Source: an uncultured Chloroflexia bacterium
GTDB taxonomy: Bacteria; Chloroflexota; Limnocylindria; Limnocylindrales; CSP1-4
Reading direction: 5' to 3'
Length of the DNA stretch: 64,000 nucleotides
NCBI GenBank assembly: GCA_963740825.1
Contig: CAVUFD010000002.1
Coordinates: 4,267-68,266, forward strand
Below the pieces are notes generated by a model. The model was given only the letters and a program-made list of their open reading frames with translations, searched no databases and was not told the DNA's origin. The position numbers and the translations under genes are program-made. This document shows, in pieces, positions 286 to 45,030 of this stretch; the first letter of the stretch is position 1, and every line of letters starts with the position of its first letter.

Positions 286-1374
286 CTAGCGCCGATGTGC
301 ATGCACCTGGATGCTGGCGCCAGTGCCCAACGGTCCCGCAAGGAGCGACCACGCCACCGCAGCCGGGCTGAGGAGCAGGGCGAGCGCCGCGGAGGCGCCG
401 ATCCTGGGCCCAAATCCGACGCTTGGGTCGCGCTTGATGAAGCTGTACAGCTCATCTTGGCCAAAGCCTGAACGGCTGAGTGCGGTCTGCACCAAGCCGA
501 GCACCTCCATCTCTGGATAGAAGGAGTCGATGTGGTCGACTGCGAGGCCTCGGGATTCGAGCAGCGCAACCAGCGATCGCGGCGTGAACTGGAAGAAGTG
601 CCTCGGCAGGTCGAGGTGAAACCACGCATCACCTCCGAGGCGAGCCTGGAGACTCCTTGAATTTGGGACGGAGACCACCAGGCGACCTCCCGGACGAAGC
701 TGTTCACGTGCGCGCTCAATAGCGGCGCCGGGATCCGGAAAGTGCTCGAGCGTATGCCAAATCGTGATGGCGTCATAGCCTCGCTCAAGCGGGGTGGTGA
801 GGTAATCCCCGACCACGACTCTCAGGCCGTACGCGTTTCGGGCAAAGGATGCGGCCGCCTCTGAGAACTCAACGCCAGTCACGTGCCAGCCGGCGTCCCG
901 CGCAGCCGAGAGGAACCGCCCTTTGCCACAGCCGACATCGAGAAGGCGCCCTGGCGTGATCCCGGAGAGCGCCCGAAGCCTGACTGTGTTGTTGATCGTG
1001 TGGAGAATGGCGGCGGCCGACCGACCACGTGCTGCGCCAGAGTAGAAGCCCGTGGCGTATAGCCGGGCGAGGTCATCGCCCTCGGGAGGATCAATCAGCC
1101 ACCGTAGGCCGCATCGACCACACTTGGCGTGTGGGTAGCCGCGAACCAACGCGCGAGACAGCGTGTTGGCCCGACAGGCCGGACATGTCTCTCCACCTGT
1201 AGCCACGAACCGAACGGACCTCTCGTAGTCTGGTTGAGATGCTGGCACGCTGGCCGTATATCGGAATCGCCTTCCTTGTTCATTGTGCCGAATTGCAGGT
1301 TCGGACGCGGCGAACGTGGGCCATACCGATCGCGACCCGAGGGCGGAATCAGTGAGGATCGCGATCGTCGGCAC
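286..1374 (-). CDS. class I SAM-dependent methyltransferase with N-terminal Cys4 zinc ribbon
   Basis: 362-aa ORF. SAM-binding motif LLDVGCGKGRF, and CPACR...CGRCG ribbon at the N-terminus. The real start may be an internal GTG. Confidence 0.6.
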   Translation of the reverse strand: MPTIAILTDSALGSRSVWPTFAASEPAIRHNEQGRRFRYTASVPASQPDYERSVRFVATGGETCPACRANTLSRALVRGYPHAKCGRCGLRWLIDPPEGDDLARLYATGFYSGAARGRSAAAILHTINNTVRLRALSGITPGRLLDVGCGKGRFLSAARDAGWHVTGVEFSEAAASFARNAYGLRVVVGDYLTTPLERGYDAITIWHTLEHFPDPGAAIERAREQLRPGGRLVVSVPNSRSLQARLGGDAWFHLDLPRHFFQFTPRSLVALLESRGLAVDHIDSFYPEMEVLGLVQTALSRSGFGQDELYSFIKRDPSVGFGPRIGASAALALLLSPAAVAWSLLAGPLGTGASIQVHAHRR

Positions 1375-2470
1375 CCGGGGGATCCCGGCCGCGTACGGAG
1401 GCTTCGAGACGCTCGCGTGGGAGCTGTCGACGCGGCTCGCCCAGCGCGGCCACGAGGTGACCGTCTACTGCCGCCGCGGGCGCACGGACGAGTCGATCCC
1501 CGTGCCGGCCGGCGTCAGGCGTCGGTTCCTGCCGTATCTGCCGGGCAAGTACCCGGAGACCGTGAGCCACACCGGCCTGCCGTCATCGACAGCCTGTTCC
1601 GCGGCTACGACGCCATGTGGGTCGGCAACGTCGCCAACGCGGTCTGCTGCGCGGTTCCGAGGTTGCGGGGCACAAGGTCGTGCTCAACGTCGACGGGATC
1701 GAGCGCCAGCGGGCGAAGTGGGGGCCGGTCGGCAGGGCGTGGTACGCGATCGGCGAACGGTTCGCGCTCGTCTACCCGAACGCGATCGTCTCCGACGCCG
1801 ACGTGATCCGCGACTACTACCTGGAGCGCTACGGCAAGCCGTCGACCGTCATCGCCTACGGTGCGCCGCTGCTGGACCGCGAGCCCGTGCCCGACCTCAC
1901 CCGTCACGGCATCGACCCGACATCGAGCCCGGACGCTTCCTGCTCTACGTGAGCAGGCTCGAGCCCGAGAACCAGGCCGACCTCGTGATCCGCGCCTATC
2001 GCGAGGTCACGGGCGACATCCCGCTGCTCATCGTCGGCGACGCGCCGTACGCCGAGACCTTCAAGGCCGGCCTGCGCGAGCTGGCGGCAGGCGACCCCCG
2101 CGTCCGCCTGACCGGCGCGATCTACGGCGACGGGTATCGCGACCTCCAGCGCTCGGCGCTCGCGTACATCCAGGCCACGTCGGTGGGCGGCACGCACCCG
2201 GCGCTCGTCGAGGCGATGGCCGCCGGCAACCTCGTGCTCGCCTTCGGGACGCCCGAGAACCGCGAGGTGGTCGCCGGGACCGGCCTCGTGTTCGCCACGG
2301 AGGGCGAGCTCACGAACTTGCTCCAGGGCGTCGTCGATGCGCCCGACTCGCCGCTGTACGACGCGTTCCGCTCGTCGGCACGCAAGCGCGCGGCAGTCAA
2401 CTACTCGTGGGACGCGGTGACGGACGCCTACCTCGCGCTGTGGACGTCGCTCGGCGCCGGGTCCGCGTGA
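1352..2470 (+). pseudogene. glycosyltransferase family 4 (GT-B), interrupted by about 3 frameshifts
   Basis: GTG start. The GT4 blocks (VRIAIVGTRGIPAAYGGFETLAWELS; AVIDSLFRGYDAMWVGNVANA; KVVLNVDGIERQRAKW; EPGRFLLYVSRLEPEN...EAMAAGNLVLA) sit in three different frames, switching near 1572, 1672 and 1925. Confidence 0.6.
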
Positions 2471-2480
2471 CGGCGGCACG

Positions 2481-4791
2481 GTGACGGCCGCACCGACCCG
2501 CTCGACGTCGATCGTCGGGCCCCTGCTCATCGTCGGCACCGCGTACCTCGTCTTCTTCGCCGGCGCCTACTTCGGCATCTATGACGTCCGGGTCCGGATC
2601 TCGAGCCTCGTCATCGTCGGCGTCGTCCTCGCCCTGTACCTCGTCGCCGCCTGGCGGTCGCCGAGCTGGTTCCCGGCGTCGCGGCTCTGGCCGGCGCTCG
2701 CGATCGGGGTCGGTGTCCTCGCGATCGACACGGTGTTCTCGCGCAACCCGCGGATCTCGCTCGACTTCCTCGCGTACGGCGTCCTGCTGGCCGCGCTGTA
2801 CCTGTTGCTCCGCTCGATCCTCGTCCACCCCGAGCTCCGGGTCCGCCTCGGAGCCGCAATGGTGATCCTCGCGTTCGTCCTGGACGTTGCCTACCTCGCG
2901 GTCGTCGTCTCCGACTGGCGCGAGTACTGGCAGGTGCTCGGCCGGTTCTCGATCCCGCCGCTGCGCCCGTTCTTCGAAGGCCTCACCTACGGCAACCCGG
3001 GGCTCGTGGCGGCGATGGCGGTGCTCGTCTCGGTCTCGGCGAGCGCGCAGCTCGGCGGCGCGACCCGTCGGTCACAGGCCGCGATCGCCGTCCTGTGGGC
3101 GCTCACGACGACCGTCGTGATCGTGTCGGGGACACGCGGTGCCTGGTTGGCGCTCGCGTTGACGGGAGTGGTCGCGCTGGCCATGTGGATCGCCGGTGGC
3201 CGGGCGCGGACGCGACTCGGTGCGCTCGTCGGGACGACGCCCGGGCGGGTCGCGCTCGCAGGCATCGCGATCGTGGGCGTCGCCGGGATCATCGTCTTCG
3301 GGCCTACCGTCGCCGATCGCGTCCTGTTCGGCAACGACGGTGGGCGGATCTCGTACTGGACGGCCGCCTTGCGCATGTTCAGCGACGCGCCGATCACCGG
3401 CGTGGGGCCGGGCATGTGGGCGCCGCAGCGGATCCTGCACACGGCCGAGGGCGAGATCGACTTCTACATCCCCCATGCCCACAACGTGTATCTCCAGACC
3501 GCCGCCGACAGCGGGCTGGTCGGGATCGTCGCCGGCGTGGTCGTGTTCCTCCTGGTGGCGCGCCTCGTGTGGGCGTCGCTCCGGTCCGGCGACCCGGCCG
3601 TCCGGCGCTGGGCCGTGGCCGGGGTGCTGGCCGCCGTCTACTTCGGCGCGCACCAGCTGTTCGACGTGTTCGTGAACATGCCCGCCGCGATCTTCGCGTT
3701 CGCCTTTCCGATCGCCTGGCTCGATGCGGCCGGGGCCGGCGAAGCCTCACCTGCCCGGTGGCCGGCCGCGCTCGGCTCGCGGCGCGCCGTCCTCGCGGCG
3801 GGCGCGCTGGCCGTCGTCGTGGCCATGGGCTGGAGCCTGGCGAGCGAGCGGTCCGCCCTGCAGCTCGACGCCGCCAAGAGCGCCCTCGACGCGGGCGACG
3901 CCGCCCGGGCCGTCGCGCTGGCCGATGACGCGCTCGCCGTCGACCAGTCGATCCCGCCCAACCAGCTGGTCCTCGCGCTGGCGGCCGCCCAGGCGGGCGA
4001 CATCGCCACCGTCGGCCCGGCGCTGGAGGCCGTCGTCGGCGCGGACGGCCTCCCGGCCGCCTGGATCGACCTGGCGTGGCTCCGTGCCGGGGCCGGCGAC
4101 GCGGCGGGCGCCCAGGCCGCCATCGGCGAAGGCCTGCGACTCGGACGCCAGCAGGCGGCCCTCACGCTGGCCGCCGGCGGGGTGTTCGAGCGCCTCGGGG
4201 ATCCGGCGTCGGCGGACCACTGGTACGCGACCGCGATCGCGCAGCTGCCCAGGCTGGCCGCCGACCCCTACTGGCGGGACCCGGCCCGCAAGGACCGATG
4301 GGGCGGGCATCGAAGCCGAGACCGCGGACCGGCTGGCCCCGGAGGAGCGCGTGGACCTGTATCTCTCGGCGGGGGAGCCGGAGCTTGCCAACGAAGCCCT
4401 CGTGGACGTGACCGATCCCGCCGACGAGGCGATGCTGCGGCTGGTGATCGACGCTTGGGGTGGGGACCCGGACGCCCGAGCGACGCTCGACGCCCAGGCG
4501 ATCGCCTCGCCGCGCGATCTCGCCTTGCTGGCCTGGGGTTCGCGGGTGGCCGATCGCGCGGGCGATCCCGACACGGCCGTCCAGTACCGGTTCCTCGCGG
4601 ACATGCAGACCCCGAGCGCCGGTGACGAGGGCAGGGAGGTCGCCGTGGTCACGCGAGGTCCGCCCGCCGCAGGGCATCGCCGGGGCCGTGTGGGCGCCGT
4701 ATGGGATCTACACGTACCGCCGGCCGACGCCCAACGCCCTGCTGCTCAGCGGGATGCCGCAGATCGTCTGCGGGCGCGACTAGGCGCGTGA
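2481..4791 (+). CDS. O-antigen ligase (Wzy_C / PglL-PilO-like) family polytopic membrane protein with C-terminal TPR-like repeats; one frameshift near 4300, 3' end uncertain
   Basis: Many TM helices, followed by the Wzy_C signature GTRGAWLALALTG ... HAHNVYLQTAADSGLVG and an Ala-rich TPR-like tail. The reading frame changes about 4300 (DPARKDRW | AGIEAETADRLAPEERVDLYLSAG). Confidence 0.55.
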
Positions 4792-6368
4792 AGGTCGGGA
4801 GGTCGGGCTCGCGGCCGGCGCGGCGGCGCGCGTGCCGCGAGACCGCCCAGGACGCCGGTCCACGCAGGAACGCGACGAGCACCGCGGGGTTCGCCACGAG
4901 CGCGGCACGCGCGTCGCGCGCGGGGCGACCGCGAGCGCGGGCCGCACGACGACGAGCAGGATCGACACCTGGTACATGAGCGTGAACGGCGCGACGAGCA
5001 GCGCCGCCAGCATCGCGGCCACGAACCCGCGCCGCTCGTCGGCGAGGATCGCCCAGACCGCCGCCACCACGGCCAACGCTGACAGCCCGACGATCAGCGG
5101 CGTCGATTCGAGGACCGTCAGCGAGAGGTTGCCGGACCGCGTGATCTGCCCGGTCGCGATCAGCGCGTCGATCCAGGCGCGATACAGGTCGACGCCCAGC
5201 AGCGCCACGCCGATCAGGGTGCGCGAGGCCGGCGAGGATCGTGCCCGCGAGGGCCCGGCGGCGCCGGACAAGCATCCACAGCAGCACGAGGCCGAGGACC
5301 GGCTTGGGCGTGAGCGCGAGCATGATCCCGAGCGGGATCCCGCGAGCCGCGCCGTCGCGGTCGCGCACGAGGAACACCGACGCCGCGAGCAGCATCGTGA
5401 CCTGCCCCACGACCAGCTCGTACACGACGGGGATGAAGCCCAGCGCGGCGATGGCGATGAGGACGCGGTCGATGGGGTCGAGGTGCCTGGTCTCGATGAC
5501 GAGGCCGGCCAGCAGCAGGACGAGGCCGATGCCCGACATCACCGCGGCGGCGGCGGGGAACGGCAGCCAGGTCAACGGGAGCGCGATCACGCCCGCGAGC
5601 GGGGCGTAGAGGAAGTCGGTGGCGATGACGCCCTTCGCGATGCCTTCGGCGCCGCGTCGGAAGATGTCGACGTCGCCCCCGAACGTCAGGGGCGCGAGGA
5701 TCGCCAGCGCGACGATGCCCATGATCCCGTTCAGCACGGCCAGGGCAAACAGATAGGGCCGGCCGCCGAGTGCCCGGTCCACGGTCGAGACGATCGCGAC
5801 GGCGATGCCGGCGCCCACCTGCGTCCGGCTCGAGGCTCCCGGCAGCGCCGCGAGCAGCAGCCCCATAGGCCAGCGGGTACCACGCGTCGAGGTTGCCGAA
5901 CAGCACCGCGATCGCGAACGGCAGCACCAGCGGCGCGACGGCGATCGCCCGGACCGCCATCGGGAAGCGCCGGATGGCCGGCGCCGACCGCCAGGCGGGC
6001 CGCGACCCAGCGCGAACCCGAGCGTCGCGCCGACGCCCCACAGCACCAGCACGACGCCGTTCGGGCAGCCACGACGACCAGCGTCATCGCCTGGGCGACG
6101 GGCGGCGGGTACGAGTAGAACAGCTCGACGGCGTCGGGCGAGGCGCCCGGCGAGCATCGCCGGGTCGTACGGGGTCTCGCCTGCGAGCACGCGCCGCGCG
6201 CCCTCGAGCAGCAGGGCCAGGTCGAAGCCGGCCTTCGGCGGGCTCGCTCTGCCACAGCGTCCAGCCGATCCAGGCGACGCCCAGCCAGACCACGAGGCCG
6301 GCCACGACCCACGGCCCGAGGCTGTCGGCGCGGAGCCGGCGATCGGTGGTGCGCGTGCCATCCGCCAC
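4780..6368 (-). pseudogene. DUF2029 / GT87-family polytopic membrane glycosyltransferase (copy A), at least 4 frame disruptions
   Basis: Membrane-protein segments are spread over three minus-strand frames: MADGTRTTDRRLRADSLGPWVVAGLVVWLGVAWIGW; GFDLALLLEGARRVLAGETPYDPAMLAG; PMGLLLAALPGASSR...IPLGIMLALTPKPVLGLVLLWML; LIGVALLGVDLYRAWIDALIATGQI... Confidence 0.5.
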
Positions 6369-6378
6369 GGCACCCAGC

Positions 6379-7276
6379 CTAGCGATCGGCCGGCACCCCG
6401 GGCCGAGCGGCGACGGCCGGGGCGGTCGCTTCGTGCCGTGGGCCGCCGAACGCCGCCAGCAGCGTCAGCAGCTGGTAGACGAGGAGCCGGGGATAGGCGA
6501 ACACCGACAGCACGACCGCGAGTGGCCAGCCGTACCGGGTCGGGGCGTAGCGCAAGCGCCAGGAACGCCAGCACGACGACGGTGGCGAGCCACAGGGCCG
6601 GGTGGATGGCGAACGGCGAGATGTTGCGGAACGCGAACGCGCCGTTGAGCCACTCGAGGCGGACGTACGCGATGCGTCGCCGCCGGCTCCAGCACGAGCT
6701 GGACCAGGCCGAGCGCGAGCAGCCACGCCACGAGGTGCAGCAGCGGGCGAAGCTCCCGCCGACCGATCCAGTAGACCGCGACCAGCACGGGCAGGAGCTT
6801 GAGGCTGCCGGCGACCGCGACGCTGGCGGGCGTGCCGAGCGGTCAGCATCAGCATCACGACCAGCTCGGCCTGGCCGACGCTGAACGCCCACAGGATCGG
6901 GAGCGCGAGGCAGCCGATGGCGATCAGCACCGGCTCGCGGAGGCCGATCCGCCGGACGGTCAGCACGAACGCTGCCGTGATCACCACCTGCCAGATCGCC
7001 GCGGCGACCGGGAACGGCAGCAGGGCGAGCGGGCGGAACAGGATGGCGAGCAGCGGCGGGTTGACGTACGGGCCGACGCCCTCGCGTCGTCGATGGGACG
7101 TACAGGGGCAGGCCCTCGTTCAGGCGGGTGCCGGCGTCGTAGTACAGGCGGGTGTCCGCGAACGGGTCGGTGGTGAGGTGGAGCACCATCGCCTGCAGGC
7201 CGATGGCCAGCCCGAACAGCGCGACGACGATGGCGAAGTAGCGCAGCAGGCGGCGGCCGCCCGGCGACAGCGGCAT
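6379..7276 (-). pseudogene. DUF2029 / GT87-family membrane glycosyltransferase (copy B), at least 3 frame disruptions
   Basis: N-terminus MPLSPGGRRLLRYFAIVVALFGLAIGLQAMVLHLTTDPFADTRLYYDAG. Later TM-like blocks (IAYVRLEWLNGAFAFRNISPFAIHPALWLATVVVLAF; LVAVYWIGRRELRPLLHLVAWLLALG; MVITAAFVLTVRRIGLREPVLIAIGCLALPILW) lie in other frames. Confidence 0.45.
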
Positions 7277-7407
7277 CGATTCGGCGGTCAGCACCCGCGC
7301 ACGATACGCCGCGTCCGCGCCCCTGCGCGAGGCGACGGCAGGTGGGTCCGGGTAGCCAATTCGTACCCCCATGAATGGCCCGGGTCCGGTGCTAGGCTGC
7401 ACCGGCC

Positions 7408-9046
7408 GTGCGGATCCCCGTGGCCCTGTACCTGCTCGCGCTCGTGGCCCGGCTCGCCGTCGCGGCCCTGTTCCCCGACCCCGCGTACCCCGATTCCTTC
7501 TACTACGTGGACGTCGCGCGCCAGCTCGCCGCGGGGCACGGATTCAACGTCGACTTCATCTGGATCTTCCCCGAGGTCGGCGGTGCGATCCCCGCCAATC
7601 CCATCCTGCCGATCCCGTCCAACGCGCACTGGATGCCGCTCGCCTCGATCGTCCAGGTGCCGTTCATCTGGCTGCTCGGCCCGACGGCGATGGCGTCGGC
7701 CCTGCCGTTCGCGTTCATCGGGGCGCTGGCCGCGCCGCTCGCGTGGGCGATCGGGCGGGACGCCGGCGCGCCGCGGTTCGTCTCGATCGGCGCCGGGATC
7801 CTGACCGCCTTCCCGGCGCTGTCGTTCGTGTACATGGCCCAGCCGGACAACTTCTCGCTGTACCAGCCGCTGGTCGCCGGGCTCGCTGTGGCTGGCCGGA
7901 CGCGGTCTGCGTGGCCACCCGCGCGACTTCGTCCTCGCCGGGCTCCTCGCCGGCGTCGCGACGCTGTCGCGCAACGACGGCGTGCTCGTGCTGGCCGTCA
8001 TCGTCGCGACCGTGCTGTGGGACCGGGTCCGTGCCCGCTGGGCGTCCGGCGGGAAGCCGGCCCGGCCGCCCCGGATCCCCCTCGCCGCGGCCGCCGGCTC
8101 GGTGGGCCTGTTCGTGCTCGCGGTCGTCCCCTGGTACGCGCGCCAGCTGGCGGTGTTCGGCCAGCTCTCGCCATCGACCTCGTCGGGCCGCGTGCTGTTC
8201 ATCCGCGACATCAGCGAGTGGAACAGCATCACGATCCCGGCCACGCTGGACCACCTCCTCGGGATGGGCATCGGCCCGCTGCTGCTGACCCGGGTCGGTG
8301 GCCTGGTCGCCGCGGCGTTCATCTTCTCGATCCTGGTCGGCGTGCTCGTGTTCGTCCCGTTCATGGTCATCGGGGCGTGGCGCCGGCGGCGCGACGCGCT
8401 GTTCGGGCCGTTCCTGGGCTACGTCGTGCTGCTGTTCGCGTTCAGCGCGATCGTGTCGGCGGTCCACGTCCCGGGCGGGACGTTCATCCACTCGGCCGTC
8501 GCGCTGGCCCCGCAGGGGTACGTGCTCGCGCTCGAGGGGATCGTCGCCGGCGCGGCCTGGCTCGCGGCACGACGGCGGGGCTGGGACTCGACCTCGGCGG
8601 CACGCGTGTTCGTCGGCGGGGCCGTCGCGTTCGGCGTCCTCGCCGCGGTCGTGGGCGCGAGCGCGGTGCACCGGAGCTGGGACGCCAAGCGCCAGAACAT
8701 GCAGGCCGTCGCGACGGCGCTCGACGCCGCGGGCGCGCCCGCGACCGACCGCGTGATGTCCATCGACGCCTCCGGCTACCGCTACTGGACGGGTCATCCG
8801 GGCGTGGTGCTGGTCAACGACCCGCTCGACACCGTGGAGCGGGTCGCGCGCGCGTACGGGATCCGGTGGCTCGTCCTCGAGCCGAAGGACAGCGTCGAGG
8901 CGGTGCGCGAGATCCTGGTCGACGACCAGCGGCCGCCGTGGGTCGGCCCGCCGATCCTCGAGCGCGACGGCGTCTCGCTCTATCCCGTCTGCCTCGACGC
9001 CGGTGACACCCGGTGCGCCACCGCCCTCGCGGGCACCAGCCGATGA
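7408..9046 (+). CDS. GT-C fold ArnT/PMT-family (COG1807, GT39/83-like) membrane glycosyltransferase #1; one frameshift near 7880
   Basis: GTG start. N-terminus MRIPVALYLLALVARLAVAALFPDPAYPDSFYYVDVARQLAAGHGF..., many TM helices, and a soluble C-terminal domain (...GIRWLVLEPKDSVEAVREILVDDQRPPWVGPPILERDGVSLYPV). It is transcribed divergently from the DUF2029 genes. Confidence 0.6.
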
Positions 9047-10690
9047 GCCGGCGCGAGGCGTGGGTCACGGCCCTGGTCGTGTTCGCGGTCGCGATCGCCG
9101 TGCGCGTCGTCGCCGCATCGGTCATCACGTTCCCCAAGCCCGAGGACACGGCCTACTACGTCGGCGTCGCGCGGAACCTCGTCGAGGGCCGCGGCCTCGT
9201 GTCCGACGCCCTGTGGAGCTACGGCACGCCGCCGCTCGTGTTTCCGCGGCCGGCGTTCGAGGTCTGGCTGCCGCTGCCGTCGCTGCTCGCGGCCATCCCG
9301 ATGGCCTCTGGCGGGCGGGCCGCGCCCCATCCCGCTCGAGGCGGCGATGCGGGCGGGCCAGGTGGTCTCCGTCGTCGCCGGCGCGATCGTGGCCGTCCTC
9401 GCCTGGCGCCTCGCCGCCGACGTCGCGGCGGAGCGCGGCCTTCCCGTCGGCCGGGCGCGAACGCTCGCGGCCGGAGCCGGGCTCACCGCGGCGGTGTACC
9501 TGCCGCTCCTGCTCCACTCCTCGCTGCCCGACTCCACGATGCTGTTCGGCGCGCTGGTCCTCGGCGCCGCGCTGCTGATGACCCGCGTCCTGCGCGACCC
9601 GCGCGGCGGGCGAGCGCTGGATGCCCGGCTGCTCGGGATCGGCGTGCTCATCGGCCTCGCGGCCCTCACGCGCAACGAGGCCGTCTGGCTCGCGCTGACG
9701 TGGGCGTGGCTGGCCTGGCGCGCCAGAGGCGCGCCGCGTGGCGTGCGGATCCGCCTCATCGGCATCGTCGCGGTCGTGAGCCTGCTCGTGTTCGCGCCGT
9801 GGGCGATCCGCGACTGGGCCGTGTTCGGGAACCCGCTCCCGGGGCAGGCCGCGACCAACGCGCTGTCGCTGAGCGGGTTCGACATCTTCGCCTGGAACCA
9901 GCCGCCGACCCTCGCCCGCTACCTCGCCGCCGGACCCGGGGGCCTGCTCGAGATGCGCGTCACCGGCCTCGGCCACAACCTGTTCAACGTCCTGCTGTTC
10001 CTGGGCATCCCGGTGTCCCTCATCGGGCTGTCGCGTGCCCTGGCAGGGGCGCGACCGGGCCCTCCGACCAGTCCTGCTGCGTGGCCGTGCTGACGTTCCT
10101 CGCCACCAGCCTGCTGTTCCCGGTCGCGACGACGTGGGGCACGTTCCTGCACGCCTCGGCGCCGGTCGCGGTGCTGCTGATCGTGTCCGCGCTCGGCGCG
10201 CTCGACGCGGGCATCGCCGCGCTGGGGCGGCGACTGGGCTGGACGCGGCCCGTGGCGTGGCTCGGGCCCGCTGCTGGCGATCTTCGCGTCGGCGCTGTTC
10301 TCGGTCGCGCTCCTGCCAGGCTTCGGCGGCAGCGCGCGATGCCTACGGCTCGCACCTATCGGGTACTGGCCGAGCAGATGGCGTCCATCGGGGCCCCGCT
10401 CGACGGCAGCGCCCCCGTCATCCACGACTTCCCGATCTGGCTCGCCGAGACCGAGCGCGTCCCCACCCTCGCGCTGCCCGACGAGGCCCCGTCGGACGTC
10501 CTCGACCTCGCGACCCACTTCGGCGCCAAGTGGCTGATCGTCGCCAAGGCCGAGCACGGCCAGTGGCCGGCGGTCCTCGACGGGCCGGACCCCGACGCGT
10601 CCTGCTTCGAGGAGGTCCTGCTGCCGATCCCCGCCGACCCAGCGGACGCGGAGGCGATCGAGGGCATCCGCGTGTTCCGGATCGCGTGCG
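9043..10690 (+). pseudogene. GT-C ArnT/PMT-family membrane glycosyltransferase #2; at least 4 frameshifts; 3' end uncertain
   Basis: The ATG overlaps the stop of gene #1 (ATGA). N-terminus MSRREAWVTALVVFAVAIAVRVVAASVITFPKPEDTAYYVGVARNLVEGRGL. Later blocks (AGQVVSVVAGAIVAVLAW...; VAVLTFLATSLLFPVATTWGTF; LLAIFASALFSVALLPGFGG; KWLIVAKAEHGQWPAVL) are in shifting frames. No in-frame stop precedes the downstream kinase. Confidence 0.45.
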
Positions 10691-10763
10691 CGGGCGTTGC
10701 GACCACGAACGGGCGCGACCGCGTGGACGGCACGCACCGCGGCGCCGGCGAGGCCCTCGCCGT

Positions 10764-13848: not shown

Positions 13849-14018
13849 TCGACCGGCGCGTGCCCGGCAGCGGCGGCGAGACCGGCCCCGGGATCCTCGA
13901 GACCTCGATCGTGCTCGGCCTGGCCCTGCTGCTGGCCGCCGTCATCGTCGTGTTCTTCGGCGGCGCGCTGGCGGACACGATCGGCCTGCTCGTGGACGCG
14001 GCCCACGGCGGCTCCTGA
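13845..14018 (+). CDS. Flp/TadE-like prepilin (57 aa)
   Basis: The ATG overlaps the TGA of the upstream HK-like gene (ATGA). Sequence MIDRRVPGSGGETG|PGILETSIVLGLALLLAAVIVVFFGG: a G-XXXX-E prepilin-type motif followed by a hydrophobic helix. Confidence 0.5.
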   Translation: MIDRRVPGSGGETGPGILETSIVLGLALLLAAVIVVFFGGALADTIGLLVDAAHGGS

Positions 14019-15312: not shown

Positions 15313-16311
15313 TTGAAGCGCTCGAACCGGTTGGTCCTGCTTATCGGGATCTTCCTCGCACTCATCGCGTTCGTCTTGATCCTGGTGACCGTCAGCGGCG
15401 GTGGAAACAAAACGACCACCGAGAAGCCGACGACGACGACGTTGGTCGTGGCCACGAAGGCCATCGACCTCGGCGCCATCATCCAGTCGACCGACGTCAC
15501 GACCAACGACGTCGCGATCACCGACTTCCCGCCCAACGGGATCAAGCTCACCAGCCTGGTCGTCGGCCAGCTCGCGCGCCAGCCGGTGACCTCCGGCCAG
15601 GCGGTGACCACCGACGTCCTGCAGGGCGCCTCCGGCAGCATCCAGAACATCCAGGTCCCCGTCGGCCACGTCGCGATGGCCGTCCAGGTGGACCAGGTCA
15701 CGGGCGTCGGCACGATCATCAAGGCCGGCGACTACGTCGACCTCGTCACCGGCATCACCGGGACCGACAAGGTGCCGCTCGTGGTGTCCCCGACGATCCG
15801 ACCCGGTGGTGGCGGCGGCAACGCGACGCCGGCCCCGCGCGGCGGCTTCGCGCCCGAGGTCCTGCCCTACAACCCGACGACCGTCAAGACGCTCATCCAG
15901 GGTGTCCAGGTGCTCGGCACGCTGCTCCCGCCGCCCAGCTCGTCCAGCAACGGCAACGCGCAGGCGTCGCCCGGCACGGGCGCCGAGACGACCCTCAACG
16001 GCCAGCAGCAGATCGTGGTCCTCTCGGTCACGTCGCAGGACGTCGAGGTCATCAAGTTCGCCCAGATCGACGGCAACATCTCGCTGGTCCTGCGGTCCAC
16101 CGATGACTGCCAGCCCCTCGAGAGCCCGTCGCCCTCGCCGAGCGCCAGCCCGTCCGCGTCGCCCGGCCCCAGCCTGGCTCCGCTCTCGCCCTGCCCGGCC
16201 TTCCCGACGACCGGCGTCACCCTTCGCAAGCTGGTCGACGACTTCGGCGTCCTGCCTCCGCAGGTGATCGAGGTCATCCAGCCGACCCCGTACCCGCAGT
16301 TCGCACCGTAA
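15313..16311 (+). CDS. cpaB: Flp pilus assembly protein CpaB/RcpC (SAF domain)
   Basis: One N-terminal TM (LVLLIGIFLALIAFVLILV). SAF/CpaB-like core LVVATKAIDLGAIIQSTDV...QVPVGHVAMAVQVDQVTGVGTIIKAGDYVDLV, and a Pro/Ser-rich linker. Confidence 0.8.
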   Translation: MKRSNRLVLLIGIFLALIAFVLILVTVSGGGNKTTTEKPTTTTLVVATKAIDLGAIIQSTDVTTNDVAITDFPPNGIKLTSLVVGQLARQPVTSGQAVTTDVLQGASGSIQNIQVPVGHVAMAVQVDQVTGVGTIIKAGDYVDLVTGITGTDKVPLVVSPTIRPGGGGGNATPAPRGGFAPEVLPYNPTTVKTLIQGVQVLGTLLPPPSSSSNGNAQASPGTGAETTLNGQQQIVVLSVTSQDVEVIKFAQIDGNISLVLRSTDDCQPLESPSPSPSASPSASPGPSLAPLSPCPAFPTTGVTLRKLVDDFGVLPPQVIEVIQPTPYPQFAP

Positions 16312-16424
16312 GCGCGCCTCCACCGCGGGTCCACGACCCGCTCCCGCGACCCGATGGGCCGGTACACCACCGGCCCATCGACGTCCGATCCATCTGACAT
16401 CCCGGCCACCTGAATCCGAGACCC

Positions 16425-17699
16425 ATGGCAGACCAGATCCGCGTCCTGATCGTCGACGACATCCCGGAGACCCGCGATCACCTCTCGAAGCTCCTGGGCT
16501 TCGAGGCGGACATCGAGGTCGTGGGATCGGCGGCGTCCGGGCGCGAAGCCATCGAGATGGCGGCGAAGCTCACGCCGGACGTCGTCCTGATGGACATCAA
16601 CATGCCCGACATGGACGGCATCTCGGCGACGGAACGCCTGTCCGCCGAGGTGCCGACGGCCGCCGTCGTGATGATGTCGGTCCAGGGCGAGGCGGACTAC
16701 CTCCGCCGGTCGATGCTGGCCGGGGCTCGCGAGTTCCTCGTCAAGCCGTTCTCCTCGGACGAGCTCACCTCGTCGATCCGGCAGGTCTACACGCGCGAGC
16801 AGGAAAAGCTGTCGCGCATCGCGCTCGCACCACCCGTGGCCAGCAGCGCCGGCGGCACCGCCGTCGCGGTCCGGCCGGTCGTGGAACGCGAGAGCGGCGA
16901 GCCCGGCCGCGTGGTCGCGGTGTTCGGCCCCAAGGGGGGCGTCGGGCGCACGACGCTGGCGGTCAACCTCGCGGTTGCCGCGGCGACCGAGCTCGGCCAG
17001 CGGACCTGTCTCGTGGACGCGTCGTTCCAGTTCGGGGACATCGGCGTCCTGCTCAACCTCAACCCCAAGAACAAGTCCATCGCGGACGTCATCCCGGAGC
17101 TCGAGCACGGGGACATCGAGTCGCTCGACGCCTTCGTCATCAGTCACTCGGCCGGGATCAAGGTCCTGCTGGCGCCCCCGTCGCCGGAGATGGCCGAGCT
17201 CATCACCCCCGCCGGCGCGAAGCGCATGGTGGAAGCCCTCCGCGCCCAGAACGACCTGGTCGTCGTCGACTGCCCGTCGACCTTCAACGACACGACGCTG
17301 GCCATCCTCGACCAGGCCGATACCGTGCTCACGATGCTCTCGCTCGAGATCACGTCGATCAAGAACATCCGCCTCTTCCTCGAGGTGGCGGACCAGCTGG
17401 GGTACAGCCAGGACAAGGTCCGGCTCGTCCTCAATCGCGCCGATTCGTCCCTGGGCATCCGCGTCGCCGACGTGGAGCACTCGATCGGGCGGCGCGTGGA
17501 CCACACGATCGTCTCCGATGGCCGGAGCGTCGTCTACGCCCTCAACCGGGGCGTGCCGTTCTTCCTCTCCAATCGGGAGGCGCAGGTCTCACAGGACGTG
17601 CTGCGTCTCGCCTCGGCCGTGGTTGGCGCGACTCCGGCAGACGCCGAAGAGCCCAGCCGGAAGGCCGGTCAGAAGAAATCGCTGTTCGCGTGGCGATGA
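16425..17699 (+). CDS. cpaE: CpaE/TadZ pilus-assembly ATPase-like protein (ParA/MinD fold) with a canonical N-terminal REC domain
   Basis: REC (IRVLIVDDIPETRD...VVLMDINMPDMDG) followed by a deviant Walker A GPKGGVGRTTLAVNLA. Confidence 0.85.
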   Translation: MADQIRVLIVDDIPETRDHLSKLLGFEADIEVVGSAASGREAIEMAAKLTPDVVLMDINMPDMDGISATERLSAEVPTAAVVMMSVQGEADYLRRSMLAGAREFLVKPFSSDELTSSIRQVYTREQEKLSRIALAPPVASSAGGTAVAVRPVVERESGEPGRVVAVFGPKGGVGRTTLAVNLAVAAATELGQRTCLVDASFQFGDIGVLLNLNPKNKSIADVIPELEHGDIESLDAFVISHSAGIKVLLAPPSPEMAELITPAGAKRMVEALRAQNDLVVVDCPSTFNDTTLAILDQADTVLTMLSLEITSIKNIRLFLEVADQLGYSQDKVRLVLNRADSSLGIRVADVEHSIGRRVDHTIVSDGRSVVYALNRGVPFFLSNREAQVSQDVLRLASAVVGATPADAEEPSRKAGQKKSLFAWR

Positions 17700-17747
17700 A
17701 TGCGACAGCGCGCACAATGGCCGCACACGGCTGAAGGGGTGTAACCG

Positions 17748-19154
17748 ATGTCCCTCTTGAAGCGGATCGAAAGCGCTCGACCCGGCACGGGTCCGGCGCC
17801 GGACGGATCCAACGTTCCTGCCCCGGCGCCGGGTGGCGGCGGGAGCCAGACGCCGGCCGCGCCGCAGGGTCGCCTCATGAGTCAGGCACCTGTTCGCGAG
17901 TCGTTCCGGGACGTCAAGTTCCGGATCCAGAGCCGCGTCATCCAGGACCTGGACCCGAAGCTCGACCTGTCCAACCAGGTCGAGGTGCGCCGGCAGATCG
18001 AGGAGATCTTCGGCAAGGTCATCGACGAGGAAGGCCTCGCGCTGACCCGCGCCGAGCGCGTCCGGATGCTGGAGCAGATCACCGACGAGATCATCGGCCT
18101 CGGCCCGTTGGAGCCCCTGCTCCGCGACGAGTCGATCTCGGAGGTCATGGTCAACGGGCCGCGCCAGGTCTACATCGAGCGCAGCGGCCGCCTCGAGCTC
18201 ACGAACGTCGTGTTCCAGAACGACGACCACGTCATGCGCATCATCGATCGGATCATCGCTCCGATCGGTCGCCGCGTTGACGAGTCGTCGCCGATGGTCG
18301 ACGCTCGCCTCACCGACGGCTCCCGCGTGAACGCCATCATCCCGCCCCTGTCCCTGGTCGGCCCGGTCATCACCATCCGGAAGTTCTCGGCCTCCCCCTT
18401 CACGGTCGACGACCTCATCCGGTTCGGCACGGCCACGCCGGACATGTTCGAGTTCCTGCGCGCCGCGGTCGAGGCCCGCCTGAACGTCTTCGTCAGCGGC
18501 GGCACCGGCTCGGGCAAGACCACCACGCTCAACGTCCTGTCCTCGTTCATCCCGAACGACGAGCGCATCGTCACGATCGAGGACGCCGCCGAGCTGCAGC
18601 TCCGCCAGGAGCACGTGGTGACGCTCGAGTCCCGGCCCCCCAACATCGAGGGCAAGGGCCAGATCCCGATCCGTGAGCTCGTCCGCAACTCGCTGCGGAT
18701 GCGGCCCGACCGCATCATCGTCGGCGAGTGCCGCTCCGGCGAGGCCCTGGACATGCTCCAGGCCATGAACACCGGCCACGATGGCTCGATGTCCACCGGC
18801 CACGCGAACAGCCCGCGCGACATGCTCGCCCGGCTCGAGACGATGGTGCTGATGGCGGGCGTCGACCTGCCGGTCCGCGCCATCCGCGAGCAGATCGCCT
18901 CCGCGGTGGACGTCATCGTCCACCAGTCGCGGCTCAAGGACGGCACGCGCCGCATCACGAACATCACCGAGGTCCAGGGCATGGAGGGTGATGTCATCGT
19001 CATGCAGGACGTGTTCGTGTTCGAGCAGACGGGCGTCGTCGAAGGCAAGATCCAGGGCCGCCTGAAGCCGACCGGCATCCGGCCCAAGTTCGTCGAGAAG
19101 TTCGAGGTCCAGGGCATCCACCTGCCGCCGGGCCTGTTCGGCTTCAGCTACTAA
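17748..19154 (+). CDS. cpaF: CpaF/TadA secretion ATPase
   Basis: Walker A VSGGTGSGKTT, plus IVTIEDAAEL and IIVGECRSGEALDMLQAMNTGHDGSMSTGHANS. Confidence 0.9.
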   Translation: MSLLKRIESARPGTGPAPDGSNVPAPAPGGGGSQTPAAPQGRLMSQAPVRESFRDVKFRIQSRVIQDLDPKLDLSNQVEVRRQIEEIFGKVIDEEGLALTRAERVRMLEQITDEIIGLGPLEPLLRDESISEVMVNGPRQVYIERSGRLELTNVVFQNDDHVMRIIDRIIAPIGRRVDESSPMVDARLTDGSRVNAIIPPLSLVGPVITIRKFSASPFTVDDLIRFGTATPDMFEFLRAAVEARLNVFVSGGTGSGKTTTLNVLSSFIPNDERIVTIEDAAELQLRQEHVVTLESRPPNIEGKGQIPIRELVRNSLRMRPDRIIVGECRSGEALDMLQAMNTGHDGSMSTGHANSPRDMLARLETMVLMAGVDLPVRAIREQIASAVDVIVHQSRLKDGTRRITNITEVQGMEGDVIVMQDVFVFEQTGVVEGKIQGRLKPTGIRPKFVEKFEVQGIHLPPGLFGFSY

Positions 19155-19179
19155 CCAGGCTGGAGAGGGAGACATCGCC

Positions 19180-20197
19180 GTGGAGCCCACGACCATCCTC
19201 ATCGCCGGCATCGCCGCCCTCGCGATCCTCGTGATCGCCGTGGGCATCGCGATGTCCGGTGGCGGCTCGGGCGTCAACGCGCGCCTCGAGCGCTACGCCT
19301 CGGGCCGGGAAGCGAAGCCCGCGGCCGGCGCCTCCGGGCAGGGCGGCCTCCAGGAGGCCCTCCAGTCCAGCCAGGCCATGGCCCAGCTCAACAAGGTCGT
19401 CGAGCAGCGCGACTTCGGGGCGAACCTCGCCCGCGAGATCGCCCGCGCCGACCTGCGGCTGAAGGTCAGCGAGTACCTCGTGATCTGGGCCGCCTGCATC
19501 ATCGGCGTGCCGATCCTCATGGTCGTCGCTGTCGGTGGCGTTCCCCGCCCTGCGCAACCCGATCGCGCTCCTGATCGGCGCGCTGATCGGGTTCATGCTC
19601 CCGCGCTTCTGGCTCAACCGCCGCAAGTCGAGCCGGCTGAACTCGTTCAACAAGCAGCTGCCGGACACGATCACGCTGATCGCGAACGCGCTCCGCGCGG
19701 GCTCGTCGTTCCTCCAGGCGATCGAGCTCGTCGTCCGCGAGTCGCGGCCCCCGATCTCCACGGAGTTCGGGCGAGTCATCCGCGAGGTCAACCTCGGCCT
19801 GTCGTTCGAGGTCGCGCTGGAGAACATGGTCCGGCGCGTGAGGTCGGACGACCTCGAGCTGATGGCGACCGCCATCTCGATCCAGCACACGGTCGGCGGC
19901 AACCTCGCCGAGATCCTCGACTCGATCGCCTTCACCATCCGCGAACGGGTCCGGATCAAGGGCGAGATCAGGACCCTGACGGCGCAGCAGCGCCTGTCGG
20001 GCTACGTCGTCGGCTTCCTGCCCATCGGCCTCGCCGGCTTCCTGTTCATCGCGGCGCCCGGCTTCATGTCGCCGATGTTCGACAACCGGGTCTCCCTGCT
20101 CGGCCTGCCTGGTGGCGTGCTCATCCTGTTCCTCGGCGGGTTCGCGATGTTCATCGGGTTCATGCTCATCCGCAAGATCGTGGACATCGAGGTCTAG
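19180..20197 (+). CDS. tadB: TadB (T2SS-F domain inner-membrane platform protein); frameshift near 19540
   Basis: N-terminal TM and periplasmic part lie in one frame. The T2SSF domain (LPDTITLIANALRAGSSFLQAIELVVRES...) lies in another. The join sits at a G/C run. Confidence 0.75.
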
Positions 20198-20200
20198 CCG

Positions 20201-21137
20201 ATGGAATCCCTGTTGCCCTTTCTCATCGCCGGCGTCGCGGCGATCGCGATCCTCCTGATCTTCGTCGGCCTGGCCGGCGGCTCGCCCGTGGATCCCGTCC
20301 AGGCGCGCCTGACCCAGCTGGGCACGATGCAGGCCAAGAACCTCGAGGAGCTCGAGCTCCAGCAGCCATTCATCGAGCGCACGCTGCGTCCGCTGGCGCA
20401 ACGGTTCTCGGGTGCGACCTCGCGCATGGCGAGCACCTCGTTCACCGCGACCACCGAGAAGCGTCTCGCGCTCGCCGGCAACCCGGGCGGCCTGCGCGTC
20501 GCGGACTGGCTGGGCATCAAGGCGGTCGGCGCGATCGTCGGCGGCGTGATCTTCGGCCTGTTGTTCTTCGTCGTCGGGTTCATGAACCTGCCGCTCATCC
20601 TGCGGCTGGCGATGATCCCGATCGGGATTGGCGTTCGGCTACACGATCCCCGAGTTCTGGCTCGGCGGCCGCGTCCGCAAGCGCCAGAAGGCCATCCTGC
20701 TCATGATCCCGGACGCCCTGGACCTGCTGACGATCTCCGTCCGCGCGGGCCTCGGCTTCGACGGGGCGCTGGGCAAGGTCGTCGAGAAGCTCAAGGGACC
20801 CCTCACCGAGGAGTTCCGGCGGGCGCTGGCGGAGATCCGCGTCGGCAAGGCCCGGCGCGACGCGCTCCGGGACATCGTCCCGCGGACCGAGGTCCCGGCC
20901 CTCACCAACTTCATCGGGGCGATCATCCAGGCCGAGCAGCTCGGCGTGTCGATCAGCAAGGTGCTCCAGGTCCAGTCGGAGCAGCTGCGCATCGAGCGCC
21001 GGCAGCGCGCAGAGGAGATGGCGGCCAAGGCGCCGATCAAGATGCTGTTCCCGCTCGTCGGGTGCATCTTCCCGTCGCTGTTCATCGTCATCCTCGGCCC
21101 GGCGATCATCCTGATCATGATCAACCTCCACACCTAG
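20201..21137 (+). CDS. tadC: TadC (T2SS-F domain platform protein); frameshift near 20628
   Basis: MESLLPFLIAGVAAIAILLIFVGL... then, in a second frame, IPDALDLLTISVRAGLGFDGALGKVVEKL... Confidence 0.7.
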
Positions 21138-24728: not shown

Positions 24729-26345
24729 GTGACCGACGACGAGGCGAGCGCCCGGGAGGCGCCGTCACGCCCCACCCGGCCGACCTGGCGCGAGGTCGGC
24801 CTGCTCGTGGCGATCGTCGCCCTCGCCGCGCTCCTGCGGCTCCCCGGCCTCGACCAGCGCGGGGCGTGGGACGCCGACCAGGGCACGGACATGCTGGTGC
24901 TCCAGGGCCTGGTCGACCGCGGCGAGGTGCCGCTGCTCGGCCCGCGGACGTCGATCGGCACGTTCCATCACGGGGCCGTCTACTACTACCTGCTCGCGCC
25001 GGCGGCCTACCTCTCGGGTGCCGATCCGGTCGCCGTGACGGCCGAGATCGCCCTGTTCGGGATCGGCGCCGTCGTCGCGGTGTGGTGGCTCGCCCGGCTC
25101 GTCGCGGGACCGGTCGCGGGGCTCGCGGCAGGCCTGCTGGCGGCGGTCTCCCCGGCCGGCATCGAGGCGTCGACGTTCATCTGGAACCCGAACCTGATCC
25201 CGCTTGCGTCGGCCGTCGCGTTCGGGGCCGCGTTGTACGCGATCCGGTCGCGCCACGCCCGCTGGTGGCTCCTGTCGGCGCTCGGGGCGATGGTCGTGAT
25301 GCAGTGCCACGTGCTCGGTGTCGTCGTGGTGCCGCCGCTCCTCGTGGCGTGGCTGGCCGACGTCCGGGGGCGGCGGCGCCGGGACGAGCGCCTCGGGCCG
25401 GCGATCGGCGCGGGCGTCGGGGCCCTGGCGATCCTCGCGGCGGGCTACCTGCCGCTGCTCGCCTTCGAGCTCCAGCACGACTTCGCGGAGACGCGAGCGA
25501 TCCTCGGCTATCTCGGCGGCAGCGGCAGCAGCGCCGCGTCGGGCGCCCTCGCGCGGATCGGGATCGTCGGCGCCCGGTCGATCGCGTGGCCGGTGTCCGG
25601 CCTGTTCACCGATCGACCGCTGCTCGCGACGCTGGCCGTGGTCGCCGCCTGCGTCCTGGCGGTCATCGCGGTGGTCGCAGGCCGTGGGACTGGCCGGCGC
25701 GCCGCGGCGTGGCTCGCGGGGTCCGTCGCGTGGGCGATCGTCGCGCTGGCCCTCTTCGCACCGAGCCTCGCGGTCATCACGCCGGGCTTGGCCAACGACC
25801 ACTACCACTCGTTCCTGGACCCTCTCGTCCTCGCATTGCTGGGCGCCGGCCTCGCCCACCTGGCCGGGCGTGCGACCGGTGCGGGCGAGGCGCCGCCGCC
25901 GGATCCGGTGCCCGCCGTGCGGACCGTCGCCGCCGCGGGACTCGGCGTCCTGCTGATCGCGGTGTCCGTCGTCGCGTGGCCACCGGCGACGTCTCCCGAT
26001 GGCGGCTGGCGGCTGGCCGACGAGGCCGCGGCTCGGACGATCGGGGCGACCGGGGATGGGCCGCTGGTCCTGGTCGGGATCCCGTCGTTCAAGAACGCCA
26101 ACGCGATGCGCTTCCCGCTGGTGCATCGCGGCGCGACCCCGCTGCCGGATGACGCTTCGGTGGCCGCCACGGGCACGCTCGTCGTCGTGTGCGACCCGCT
26201 GTTCGCCGACGTCGTCGGCGCCGCCTGTGGTGGTCCCGCGGAGGATGCGCTGCTGGCCGAGCGAGGCGCCGCAGGGCTCGGCCTCCTGGACCGCTTCGAT
26301 GCCGGCCCGCGGCGCGTGATCTCGGTATACGGCACCGCTCCGTAG
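24729..26345 (+). CDS. GT-C ArnT/PMT-family membrane glycosyltransferase #3 (in frame with nfo; start inferred at GTG 24729)
   Basis: LLVAIVALAALLRLPGLDQRGAWDADQGTDMLVLQGLVDRGEVPLLGPRTSIGTFHHGAVYYYLL, followed by at least 10 TM helices. Confidence 0.5.
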   Translation: MTDDEASAREAPSRPTRPTWREVGLLVAIVALAALLRLPGLDQRGAWDADQGTDMLVLQGLVDRGEVPLLGPRTSIGTFHHGAVYYYLLAPAAYLSGADPVAVTAEIALFGIGAVVAVWWLARLVAGPVAGLAAGLLAAVSPAGIEASTFIWNPNLIPLASAVAFGAALYAIRSRHARWWLLSALGAMVVMQCHVLGVVVVPPLLVAWLADVRGRRRRDERLGPAIGAGVGALAILAAGYLPLLAFELQHDFAETRAILGYLGGSGSSAASGALARIGIVGARSIAWPVSGLFTDRPLLATLAVVAACVLAVIAVVAGRGTGRRAAAWLAGSVAWAIVALALFAPSLAVITPGLANDHYHSFLDPLVLALLGAGLAHLAGRATGAGEAPPPDPVPAVRTVAAAGLGVLLIAVSVVAWPPATSPDGGWRLADEAAARTIGATGDGPLVLVGIPSFKNANAMRFPLVHRGATPLPDDASVAATGTLVVVCDPLFADVVGAACGGPAEDALLAERGAAGLGLLDRFDAGPRRVISVYGTAP

Positions 26346-45023: not shown

Positions 45024-45030
45024 CGGCCGG

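Follow-up and report, generated by a model that had tools for sequence, protein, structure and literature searches.

Background

Ligases and oligosaccharyltransferases of the Wzy_C superfamily are the closest described relatives of the protein considered here. [quoted passage not shown] TfpO/PilO, PglS and TfpM, of the same superfamily, transfer a glycan from a lipid carrier to a Ser or Thr close to the C-terminus of a pilin. Another Wzy_C-family enzyme is WsaB, the S-layer O-oligosaccharyltransferase (O-OTase) of Geobacillus stearothermophilus, whose host lacks lipopolysaccharide (LPS) and whose setting comprises a phosphoglycosyl transferase, a Wzm/Wzt exporter and methyl-capped chains; it is not known to have a tetratricopeptide repeat (TPR) domain. 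Here, we describe a glycosylation island in a 64,000-nucleotide stretch of contig CAVUFD010000002.1 (the window), from the genome of a soil bacterium, in which one gene joins a Wzy_C membrane domain to a TPR solenoid, and compare it with these systems and with related loci. The component families are all known, and according to our literature searches the combination of Wzy_C, an extra transmembrane (TM) helix and an external TPR domain has not been described as a defined family. The island genes most likely build a lipid-linked surface glycan. We tentatively read the island as the variable part of a lipid-linked surface-glycan pathway in a monoderm-type member of the Chloroflexota, with the Wzy_C and TPR protein acting as a general O-OTase on surface proteins, a reading to which we give somewhat less than an even chance.

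Members of the Chloroflexota abound in soil and water, and little is understood of their envelopes. Of roughly 3,780 genomes of the phylum, about 1,234 encode Tad (PMC12488501). The phylum has been reported to lack genes for LPS synthesis and for the BAM complex (PMC13319060), its Tad systems are without secretins (PMC12488501, PMC13319060) and its envelope layers have been suggested to be polysaccharide or protein (PMC13319060). Probable O-glycans have been seen by cryo-electron microscopy on a type IV-like filament of the phylum, the archaellum, and were ascribed to an unidentified 'existing bacterial glycosylation machinery' (PMC12488501). Judging from the named homologues of one island protein, GT-C A (Candidatus Limnocylindrales, 'Chloroflexi bacterium RBG_16_72_14' and metagenome-assembled genomes of Chloroflexota), the host of the window probably belongs to the class Limnocylindria of this phylum. 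An actinobacterial origin, considered because of the high GC and the GT87 and PMT-like genes, was discarded in view of these homologues. No secretin gene was found in the tad locus of the window, and this, together with the reported absence of LPS and BAM genes, makes a classical O-antigen on lipid A-core unlikely, in agreement with an earlier sequence-only reading of the same DNA, which had favoured protein glycosylation over an O-antigen pathway.

The Wzy_C and TPR protein

The gene (2481..4783, plus strand; identified by Pfam, tblastn and an AlphaFold2 (AF2) model) encodes 766 aa after correction of two frameshifts. Homologues of about 770 aa cover only 85% of the 714-aa open reading frame (ORF), and in tblastn searches the gene shifts frame at ~4302 and ~4654 and carries on in two other frames, which moves its end from 4625, where the sequence-only reading had put it, to 4783. 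In the corrected protein, the Pfam model Wzy_C (PF04932) scores 67.5 bits over residues 207-351 (cutoff 31.7). When Pfam was scanned with E values up to 0.1, Wzy_C alone was returned and no PglL_A motif (PglL_B has no model of its own in the library searched), and the NCBIfam scores were far under cutoff, with 30 against 366 bits for IctB and 14.1 against 600 for TfpM.

Across an alignment of 62 members of the Wzy_C and TPR family, R219, R289, G307, G309, H334, G345 and G348 are invariant. R219, R289, H334, G345 and G348 align with their counterparts, the R-R-H triad among them, in both WaaL (7tpg) and the oligosaccharyltransferase 9rmk, and the segment HNVYLQTAADSGLVG matches the WaaL motif H[NSQ]X9GXX[GTY], in the form H-N-X9-G-XX-G. 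A search of the PDB with the single sequence gave no match, and a profile of the full-length family was swamped by TPR proteins; the profile had to be trimmed to the membrane domain, upon which exactly two solved proteins were matched, WaaL 7tpg (E 7e-11, 44.9 bits) and the 610-aa 'Oligosaccharyltransferase' 9rmk (E 1e-10, 44.3 bits). By these sequence comparisons, the protein is best placed as a member of the ligase/O-OTase superfamily, equidistant from both characterised branches and carrying a distinctive added module.

An AF2 model of P0002, a homologue of 72% identity, was obtained with a pLDDT of 92.5 and a pTM of 0.92, and its membrane domain resembles WaaL 7tpg_B with a target-normalised Foldseek TM-score of 0.61. 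The WaaL-like helices are followed by a 13th, strongly hydrophobic helix starting with PRVRR, by a TPR solenoid, visible in the model as helical repeats at residues 482-725, and by a short conserved C-terminal tail. That the TPR region is genuine follows from the family profile, which matches consensus-TPR structures with E 4e-81 and the TPR domain of OGT with E 5e-27. Four hydrophobic helices lie between the catalytic loop and the TPR domain, and because four membrane passes separate the two, both would face the same side. Helix parity and charge bias in the model thus place the solenoid, which is net acidic (41 D+E against 24 K+R), on the outer side of the membrane with the catalytic loop. 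The tail after the TPR domain (window ~4700-4780) has the consensus YGxYTYRRPTP, in which Y753, R754 and R755 are conserved in at least 90% of the members, and the model has two short beta strands in the C-terminal region; the tail may serve as a plug, imitate an acceptor or act in docking.

Compared with WaaL of Cupriavidus metallidurans (7tpg), the protein has in common the Wzy_C domain, about 12 TM helices, a large outer loop with the Arg-Arg-His and H-N-X9-G-XX-G residues and, as implied by gene context, a lipid-pyrophosphate-glycan donor. It differs in the 13th TM helix, the ~250-aa extracytoplasmic TPR solenoid and the conserved tail, as well as in its setting, since the host phylum is reported to be without lipid A-core and no core-oligosaccharide genes lie nearby. 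With the PglL-type O-OTases (Neisseria PglL; 9rmk) it shares the superfamily, the catalytic residues and a profile score equal to that of WaaL, and the usual neighbours of the family (Bac_transf, DegT, epimerase/dehydratase and flippase genes) resemble the Neisseria pgl locus; unlike these enzymes, it is without a PglL_A motif, is fused to TPR repeats and comes from a host that is not a proteobacterium. The context of WsaB presumably resembles those of two related loci described below (L005 and L009); a gene for an S-layer protein was not identified in the present analysis. The eukaryotic O-mannosyltransferases TMTC1-4 and OGT likewise combine a glycosyltransferase with a TPR solenoid where the acceptor is met, whose catalytic folds and donors differ, making this an analogy of architecture only.

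Island genes and related loci

The G+C content of the whole window is 72%, and plain ORF lists are therefore uninformative; together with a strict filter on third-position GC, they overlooked most genes of the island. Coding regions were mapped instead by a six-frame Viterbi path on third-position GC, combined with Pfam and NCBIfam scans and with tblastn using the proteins of relatives. All enzyme types listed by the sequence-only reading were recovered with support from hidden Markov models, and the divergent operons it had described, abutting a cluster of two-component and pilin genes, are borne out by the gene map, with divergent starts at ~1352-1374 and ~7279-7408, a convergent junction at ~4783 and, beyond, a two-component system, three Flp genes and tad genes.

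At the left edge lies a gene for a SAM-dependent methyltransferase with an N-terminal CxxC...CxxC zinc ribbon (CPAC...CGRC; 286..1374, minus strand; Methyltransf_23, E 1.5e-29). The segment 1-1351 that carries it has a GC of 0.664 and weak codon bias and is without DNA homology in the related loci L002-L004, where homology begins exactly at 1352, the start of the next gene; it looks like an insertion at the edge of the glycan module, with the methyltransferase as a strain-specific accessory gene. A flippase gene to the left of the methyltransferase, as in L004, was looked for in the window and not found, positions 1-285 being non-coding and without homology there. The gene that starts at 1352 encodes a GT4 glycosyltransferase of the DUF1972/Cps2T (WchF) type (1352..2470, plus strand; Pfam Glyco_transf_4, Glycos_transf_1 and DUF1972). 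Its closest NCBIfam model is Cps2T, at 124 bits and so under the cutoff of 500, and it probably adds a sugar to a polyprenyl-pyrophosphate-linked sugar on the cytoplasmic face.

Convergent with the Wzy_C gene, on the minus strand, are genes of the GT87 family (DUF2029, PimE-like), which the sequence-only reading had recognised and counted as two; there are three, as in L009, the middle one being truncated. GT87c (~4800..5790, ends approximate) encodes a GT-C mannosyltransferase-like membrane protein of ~330 aa (Pfam GT87 42.2 bits, cutoff 25) that is 53% identical to a 334-aa GT87 of L009 over 5776-4906. The truncated GT87b (~5870..6441; tblastn with the L009 GT87b) and the ~300-aa GT87a (6379..7279, stop codon at 6379; tblastn with a 274-aa GT87 of L009, in three frames) were delimited by six-frame reading and assigned via L009 orthologues that have GT87 hits. 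Two plus-strand genes follow, GT-C A (7408..9046, 545 aa), an ArnT/PMT_2-like GT-C glycosyltransferase of GT83/GT39-like type, and its paralogue GT-C B (9043..~10740, ~570 aa), 30-35% identical to it and with a weak NCBIfam match to LA_3751/LA_3752. PMT_2 scores above its cutoff, and a GT-C fold is present. A profile of GT-C A and B matched nothing among the PDB sequences, and neither the GT87 nor the ArnT/PMT-like enzymes matched a curated NCBIfam equivalog. An assignment of GT-C A to the STT3/AglB/PglB oligosaccharyltransferases was rejected, as the WWDYG motif of their C-terminal domain is absent. GT-C A has more than 120 counterparts in databases at 69-88% identity and is conserved at 70-90% across the class.

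Homologues of the Wzy_C and TPR protein are widespread. A scan of genome contigs with the single Wzy_C protein gave only one locus, 27% identical and from Solirubrobacterales, while the metagenome scan yielded 54 further loci, of which the 26 of at least 6 kb were used for counting neighbours. Bac_transf and GT87 genes each occur in 14 of the 26, sugar-nucleotide genes in 10, GT-C A/B-like genes in two and a match to tad genes in one. In Chloroflexota-like lineages, Bac_transf and GT87 are conserved partners of the family.

Among the relatives, L003 (62% identity in Wzy_C) and L004 (59%) keep the gene order of the window as far as the flp genes. L002, with 72% identity, has only GT4 and Wzy_C, followed by an insertion sequence element; its 21-kb locus contains no match to GT-C A, GT-C B or GT87 and no orthologous block of two-component and flp genes, the two-component system near its Wzy_C gene being just 30-34% identical to that of the window. 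Conversely, L008 (a 3.6-Mb contig) and L009 (GCA_021787395.1) have GT87 genes, the divergent GT-C A, GT-C B, kinase, regulator, second kinase, a small gene, three to four flp genes and CpaB, while a Wzy_C gene is missing from the surrounding 10 kb in both. CpaE and CpaF lie further along in L008, and L009 has an ABC transporter interposed behind GT-C B. The only one of the 26 metagenomic loci with a tad match, L037 (GT-C A 56% identical), has Wzy_C, a convergent GT87-GT2-GT87 group, the divergent GT-C A, GT-C B, kinase, regulator and second kinase, where the contig ends.

More distant Wzy_C and TPR homologues (L005-L007, 41-44% identity) stand amid GT87 genes and a GT2 of ~270 aa, in loci without tad genes. 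Bac_transf, epimerase and DegT genes, with Wzx or Wzm/Wzt, are found in L005, L006 and L009, and epimerase and rhamnose-synthesis genes in L007. As to exporters, L004 and L006 have Polysacc_synt (Wzx), while L005 (with Wzt_C) and L009 have Wzm/Wzt. No chain-length regulator was seen in any locus. Large proteins (~680-790 aa) of the major facilitator superfamily (MFS) and/or spermine synthase type also recur beside the Wzy_C and TPR and GT87 genes of the distant relatives (L005 810-3167, L006 537-2900 and 5474-7573, L007 1327-5690, L030 2462-4774), the two domains being joined in a single protein in L005 and L006; the window has none.

The divergence between the window and L003 differs sharply by gene, from 99% identity for the response regulator, 95% for Flp, 90% for GT-C A and 82% for GT-C B to 80% for GT4, 58-62% for Wzy_C and 55% for GT87. 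Because of this, and because the methyltransferase segment has no counterpart, the island is a composite of a fast-evolving, movable module (methyltransferase, GT4, Wzy_C and TPR, and partly GT87) and a GT-C pair that changes slowly. This pair and the GT87 genes hold their place beside the two-component, flp and tad block across the class, whereas the module of Wzy_C, GT4 and methyltransferase does not.

Proposed pathway and acceptor

Each step of the pathway that we propose is inferred from family membership and gene context. First, a phosphoglycosyl transferase encoded outside the island would start the glycan on undecaprenyl phosphate; in most relatives, the initiating gene is a Bac_transf adjoining the Wzy_C gene. 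The GT4 enzyme of DUF1972 type would then extend the glycan in the cytoplasm, where the methyltransferase may modify it, and a Wzx or Wzm/Wzt system encoded elsewhere would export it. Outside the membrane, the Wzy_C and TPR enzyme would move the glycan en bloc from its lipid carrier to the acceptor, and the GT87 and ArnT/PMT-like GT-C enzymes would add or extend sugars there, using polyprenyl-phosphate sugar donors. A glycan built on polyprenyl pyrophosphate and then exported is suggested because the recurring partners are a phosphoglycosyl transferase, nucleotide-sugar enzymes, a flippase or ABC exporter and a Cps2T-like GT4; Cps2T acts on a lipid-linked sugar.

The acceptor would most likely be one or more surface proteins, and not specifically the neighbouring Flp pilins, because the phylum is reported to be without lipid A-core, the TPR domain faces outward and probable archaellum O-glycans have been seen in the phylum, with WsaB as a precedent. 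TPR domains usually bind proteins. Of the two options of the sequence-only reading, pilin-specific or general protein O-glycosylation, the general one is plausible from the superfamily and the extracytoplasmic TPR domain, and a link of the Wzy_C protein to the pilins is not supported. That reading had also named, in combination with a clustering of Wzy_C with WaaL/Wzy polymerases, flippase or chain-length regulator genes nearby as a sign against protein glycosylation. Flippases or ABC exporters are indeed present in the relatives L004, L005, L006 and L009, with chain-length regulators seen nowhere; PglL-type systems likewise need a lipid-linked donor and a flippase, so the flippase criterion does not discriminate.

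Several points weigh against general O-glycosylation of surface proteins. The acceptor is pure inference, and the pathway was pieced together from relatives, with no initiating transferase, flippase or sugar-nucleotide gene within the island. Periplasmic TPR domains also scaffold polysaccharide export, GT87 enzymes are best known from lipoglycan synthesis, and a Wzt_C-type exporter suits long polysaccharides on non-protein anchors as well as S-layer glycans. The conservation of the GT-C pair greatly exceeds that of the other island genes, and the pair may have its place in another process of a housekeeping kind; the many frameshifts in the window's genes mean that function in this genome is not assured.

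The strongest competitor, which we consider possible though clearly less probable, is that the Wzy_C and TPR protein ligates or polymerises a secondary cell-wall polysaccharide or lipoglycan, with the TPR domain as a scaffold and the GT87 and ArnT-like enzymes elongating a lipomannan-like chain. The neighbours are typical of polysaccharide loci, comprising Bac_transf, Wzx or Wzm/Wzt with Wzt_C, rhamnose and aminosugar genes and several GT87 genes; polymerases also belong to the Pfam Wzy_C family, the solved GT87 enzyme PimE (9dm5) acts on a glycolipid, and polysaccharide is one of the two materials suggested for Chloroflexota envelope layers (PMC13319060). Against this, ligases and O-OTases are the enzymes known for the R-R-H triad and the H-N-X9-G-XX-G motif conserved here, and no chain-length regulator, with which a polymerase would work, was seen in any of the loci. 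Should the acceptor not be protein, the Wzy_C and TPR family would still define a way of anchoring surface polysaccharide without LPS.

The family, widespread and consistently within lipid-linked glycan loci, is a concrete candidate for the machinery behind the probable O-glycans of the Chloroflexota filament (PMC12488501). In the boldest reading, which we regard as improbable, the Wzy_C and TPR protein would be the missing general O-OTase of Chloroflexota and other LPS-less phyla, its TPR domain capturing surface proteins including Flp and archaellins, and the ArnT/PMT-like pair of Limnocylindria would add sugars to the pilus.

Frame changes

The island cannot be read at face value, its ORFs being full of probable assembly indels. 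Candidate frame changes without a stop codon number 17 at 1.35-10.8 kb, or 1.8 per kb, whereas the stretch 12.8-22 kb has 7 and the stretch 23-64 kb has 2, a clustering that holds although parts of the remaining 41 kb match in G+C. Besides Wzy_C, they affect GT4, all three GT87 genes and both GT-C genes. Three were mapped in GT4 by comparing frames with the L004 and L002 proteins; GT87c has one or two, GT87b several and GT87a four or five. GT-C A has a single change near 7882, and GT-C B has changes near 9305-9325, 10029-10035, 10080 and 10705-10765.

If these changes were real, the glycan island and part of the tad locus would be decaying into pseudogenes in this genome, an outcome that we consider rather improbable. 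It would account for the strong clustering and for GT87b, which covers only residues 5-156 of its 389-aa L009 orthologue (tblastn). This truncation is larger than the indels and may be real; in the lineage of the window, and perhaps in that of L003 too, GT87b is probably what is left of a gene. The other observations speak against decay. Relative to L003, the differences are single-base indels in G/C-rich runs, some of which compensate mutually within 50 nt; third-position GC is kept at 94-100% throughout every frame segment, and protein identity to relatives is still 80-99%. The related assemblies all carry names of the form 'contig_N', as long-read assemblers typically give them, and the genes that are broken differ among them: in L003, GT-C A and B are intact with Wzy_C and the kinase split, and L004 is fragmented at other places. 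Because intact copies exist in relatives, P0002 and P0009 among them, most of the frameshifts are probably consensus errors of long-read sequencing, concentrated in a strain-variable region; our guess is that the clustering stems from a strain-variable or low-coverage region of a long-read assembly.

Two-component, flp and tad genes

To the right of GT-C B follow, all on the plus strand, a HisKA_3 histidine kinase (10765-11898), a response regulator with REC and LuxR domains (11895-12638), a second protein with HisKA_3 only (12672-13848), three Flp pilin genes (14160-14330, 14523-14687 and 14803-15000) and Tad pilus genes for CpaB/RcpC, CpaE with a receiver domain, CpaF/TadA, TadB and TadC (15313..21137). 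A 57-aa gene at 13845-14018 (plus strand) overlaps the stop codon of the second HisKA_3 gene. Its product, …TGPGILETSIVLGLALLLAAVIVVFFGG…DAAHGGS, is Flp-like and may be a divergent minor pilin, and the gene is conserved at the matching place in L003, L008 and L009.

In its stronger form, the sequence-only reading is that the island glycosylates pilins. Flp would then be modified either by the Wzy_C and TPR protein in the manner of PilO/TfpO/PglL or by the GT-C pair in the manner of the pilin arabinosyltransferase TfpW. For the GT-C pair, the gene order speaks in its favour: GT87, GT-C A, GT-C B, two-component system and flp are arranged alike in the window, L003, L004, L008 and L009, L037 keeps this order up to the second HisKA_3 gene, and in L003 the stop codon of GT-C B overlaps the start codon of the kinase. 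The two-component block always stands between the GT-C pair and the flp genes in the relatives. On the other side, the synteny is limited to one class, and in L009 it is interrupted by the ABC transporter. For the Wzy_C and TPR protein, the linkage does not hold. Between the end of its gene, at 4783, and the start of the first flp gene, at 14160, lie 9.4 kb, eight genes and two strand switches, and the Wzy_C gene is in a different transcription unit, whereas the genes of known pilin-specific O-OTases such as TfpO/PilO, PglS and TfpM lie directly beside the pilin gene. The comparison of island and tad presence across relatives, which the sequence-only reading had itself proposed, separates the two: Wzy_C is independent of the tad locus in L002, L008 and L009, and its linkage to flp is absent in L002, in L005-L009 and in 25 of the 26 metagenomic loci. 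The missing PglL_A motif and the failure of the TfpM model (14 bits against a cutoff of 600) point the same way, and a role of this protein dedicated to pilins is not supported.

Further points in favour of pilin glycosylation are that Flp1 of A. actinomycetemcomitans has been described as glycosylated (PMC6182317), that probable O-glycans were seen on the Chloroflexota archaellum (PMC12488501), that 21 of 31 predicted pglL genes adjoin pilin genes (PMC3643930) and that two Ser positions, in Q-V-S and L-S-x-V-G, are conserved in the exposed C-terminus of Flp. Against it, the structure of the Caulobacter Tad pilus, the only one found in the literature search, is without glycan density (PMC10710030). 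The Ser/Thr-rich C-termini of Flp that had been taken as a hint of glycosylation proved ordinary for the family when paralogues and orthologues were compared, the other polar positions of the tails varying among S, T, E, Q, D and N, and were discarded as a glycosylation signal. Pilin-directed glycosylation is accordingly improbable.

Other genes of the window

A third PMT_2-like GT-C at 24729..26345 (plus strand; PMT_2 36.4 bits; 27% identical to GT-C A) confirms a prediction of the sequence-only reading. It shares one frame, 23313-26345 (plus strand), with an endonuclease IV-like gene (AP_endonuc_2), the two joined by an Arg-rich linker without a stop codon, which represents either a stop codon lost through assembly error or an odd fusion. 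No flippase, chain-length regulator or Bac_transf gene was found in the rest of the window. A WecA/MraY-type polyprenyl-phosphate sugar-1-phosphate transferase (Glycos_transf_4; 43923-45092, minus strand) adjoins glyA downstream of the ATP synthase operon and is, among these housekeeping genes, the sole candidate for an initiating enzyme in the window. At 40028-42364, a 778-aa ORF on the minus strand has Big_9 and cadherin-like domains of a surface protein; plus-strand ORFs of very high third-position GC (40146-40559, 40569-40796 and 41448-41780) overlap it, leaving the coding strand partly ambiguous. A transposase gene of the IS110 family (DEDD_Tnp_IS110, Transposase_20) lies at 53886-55136 on the minus strand.

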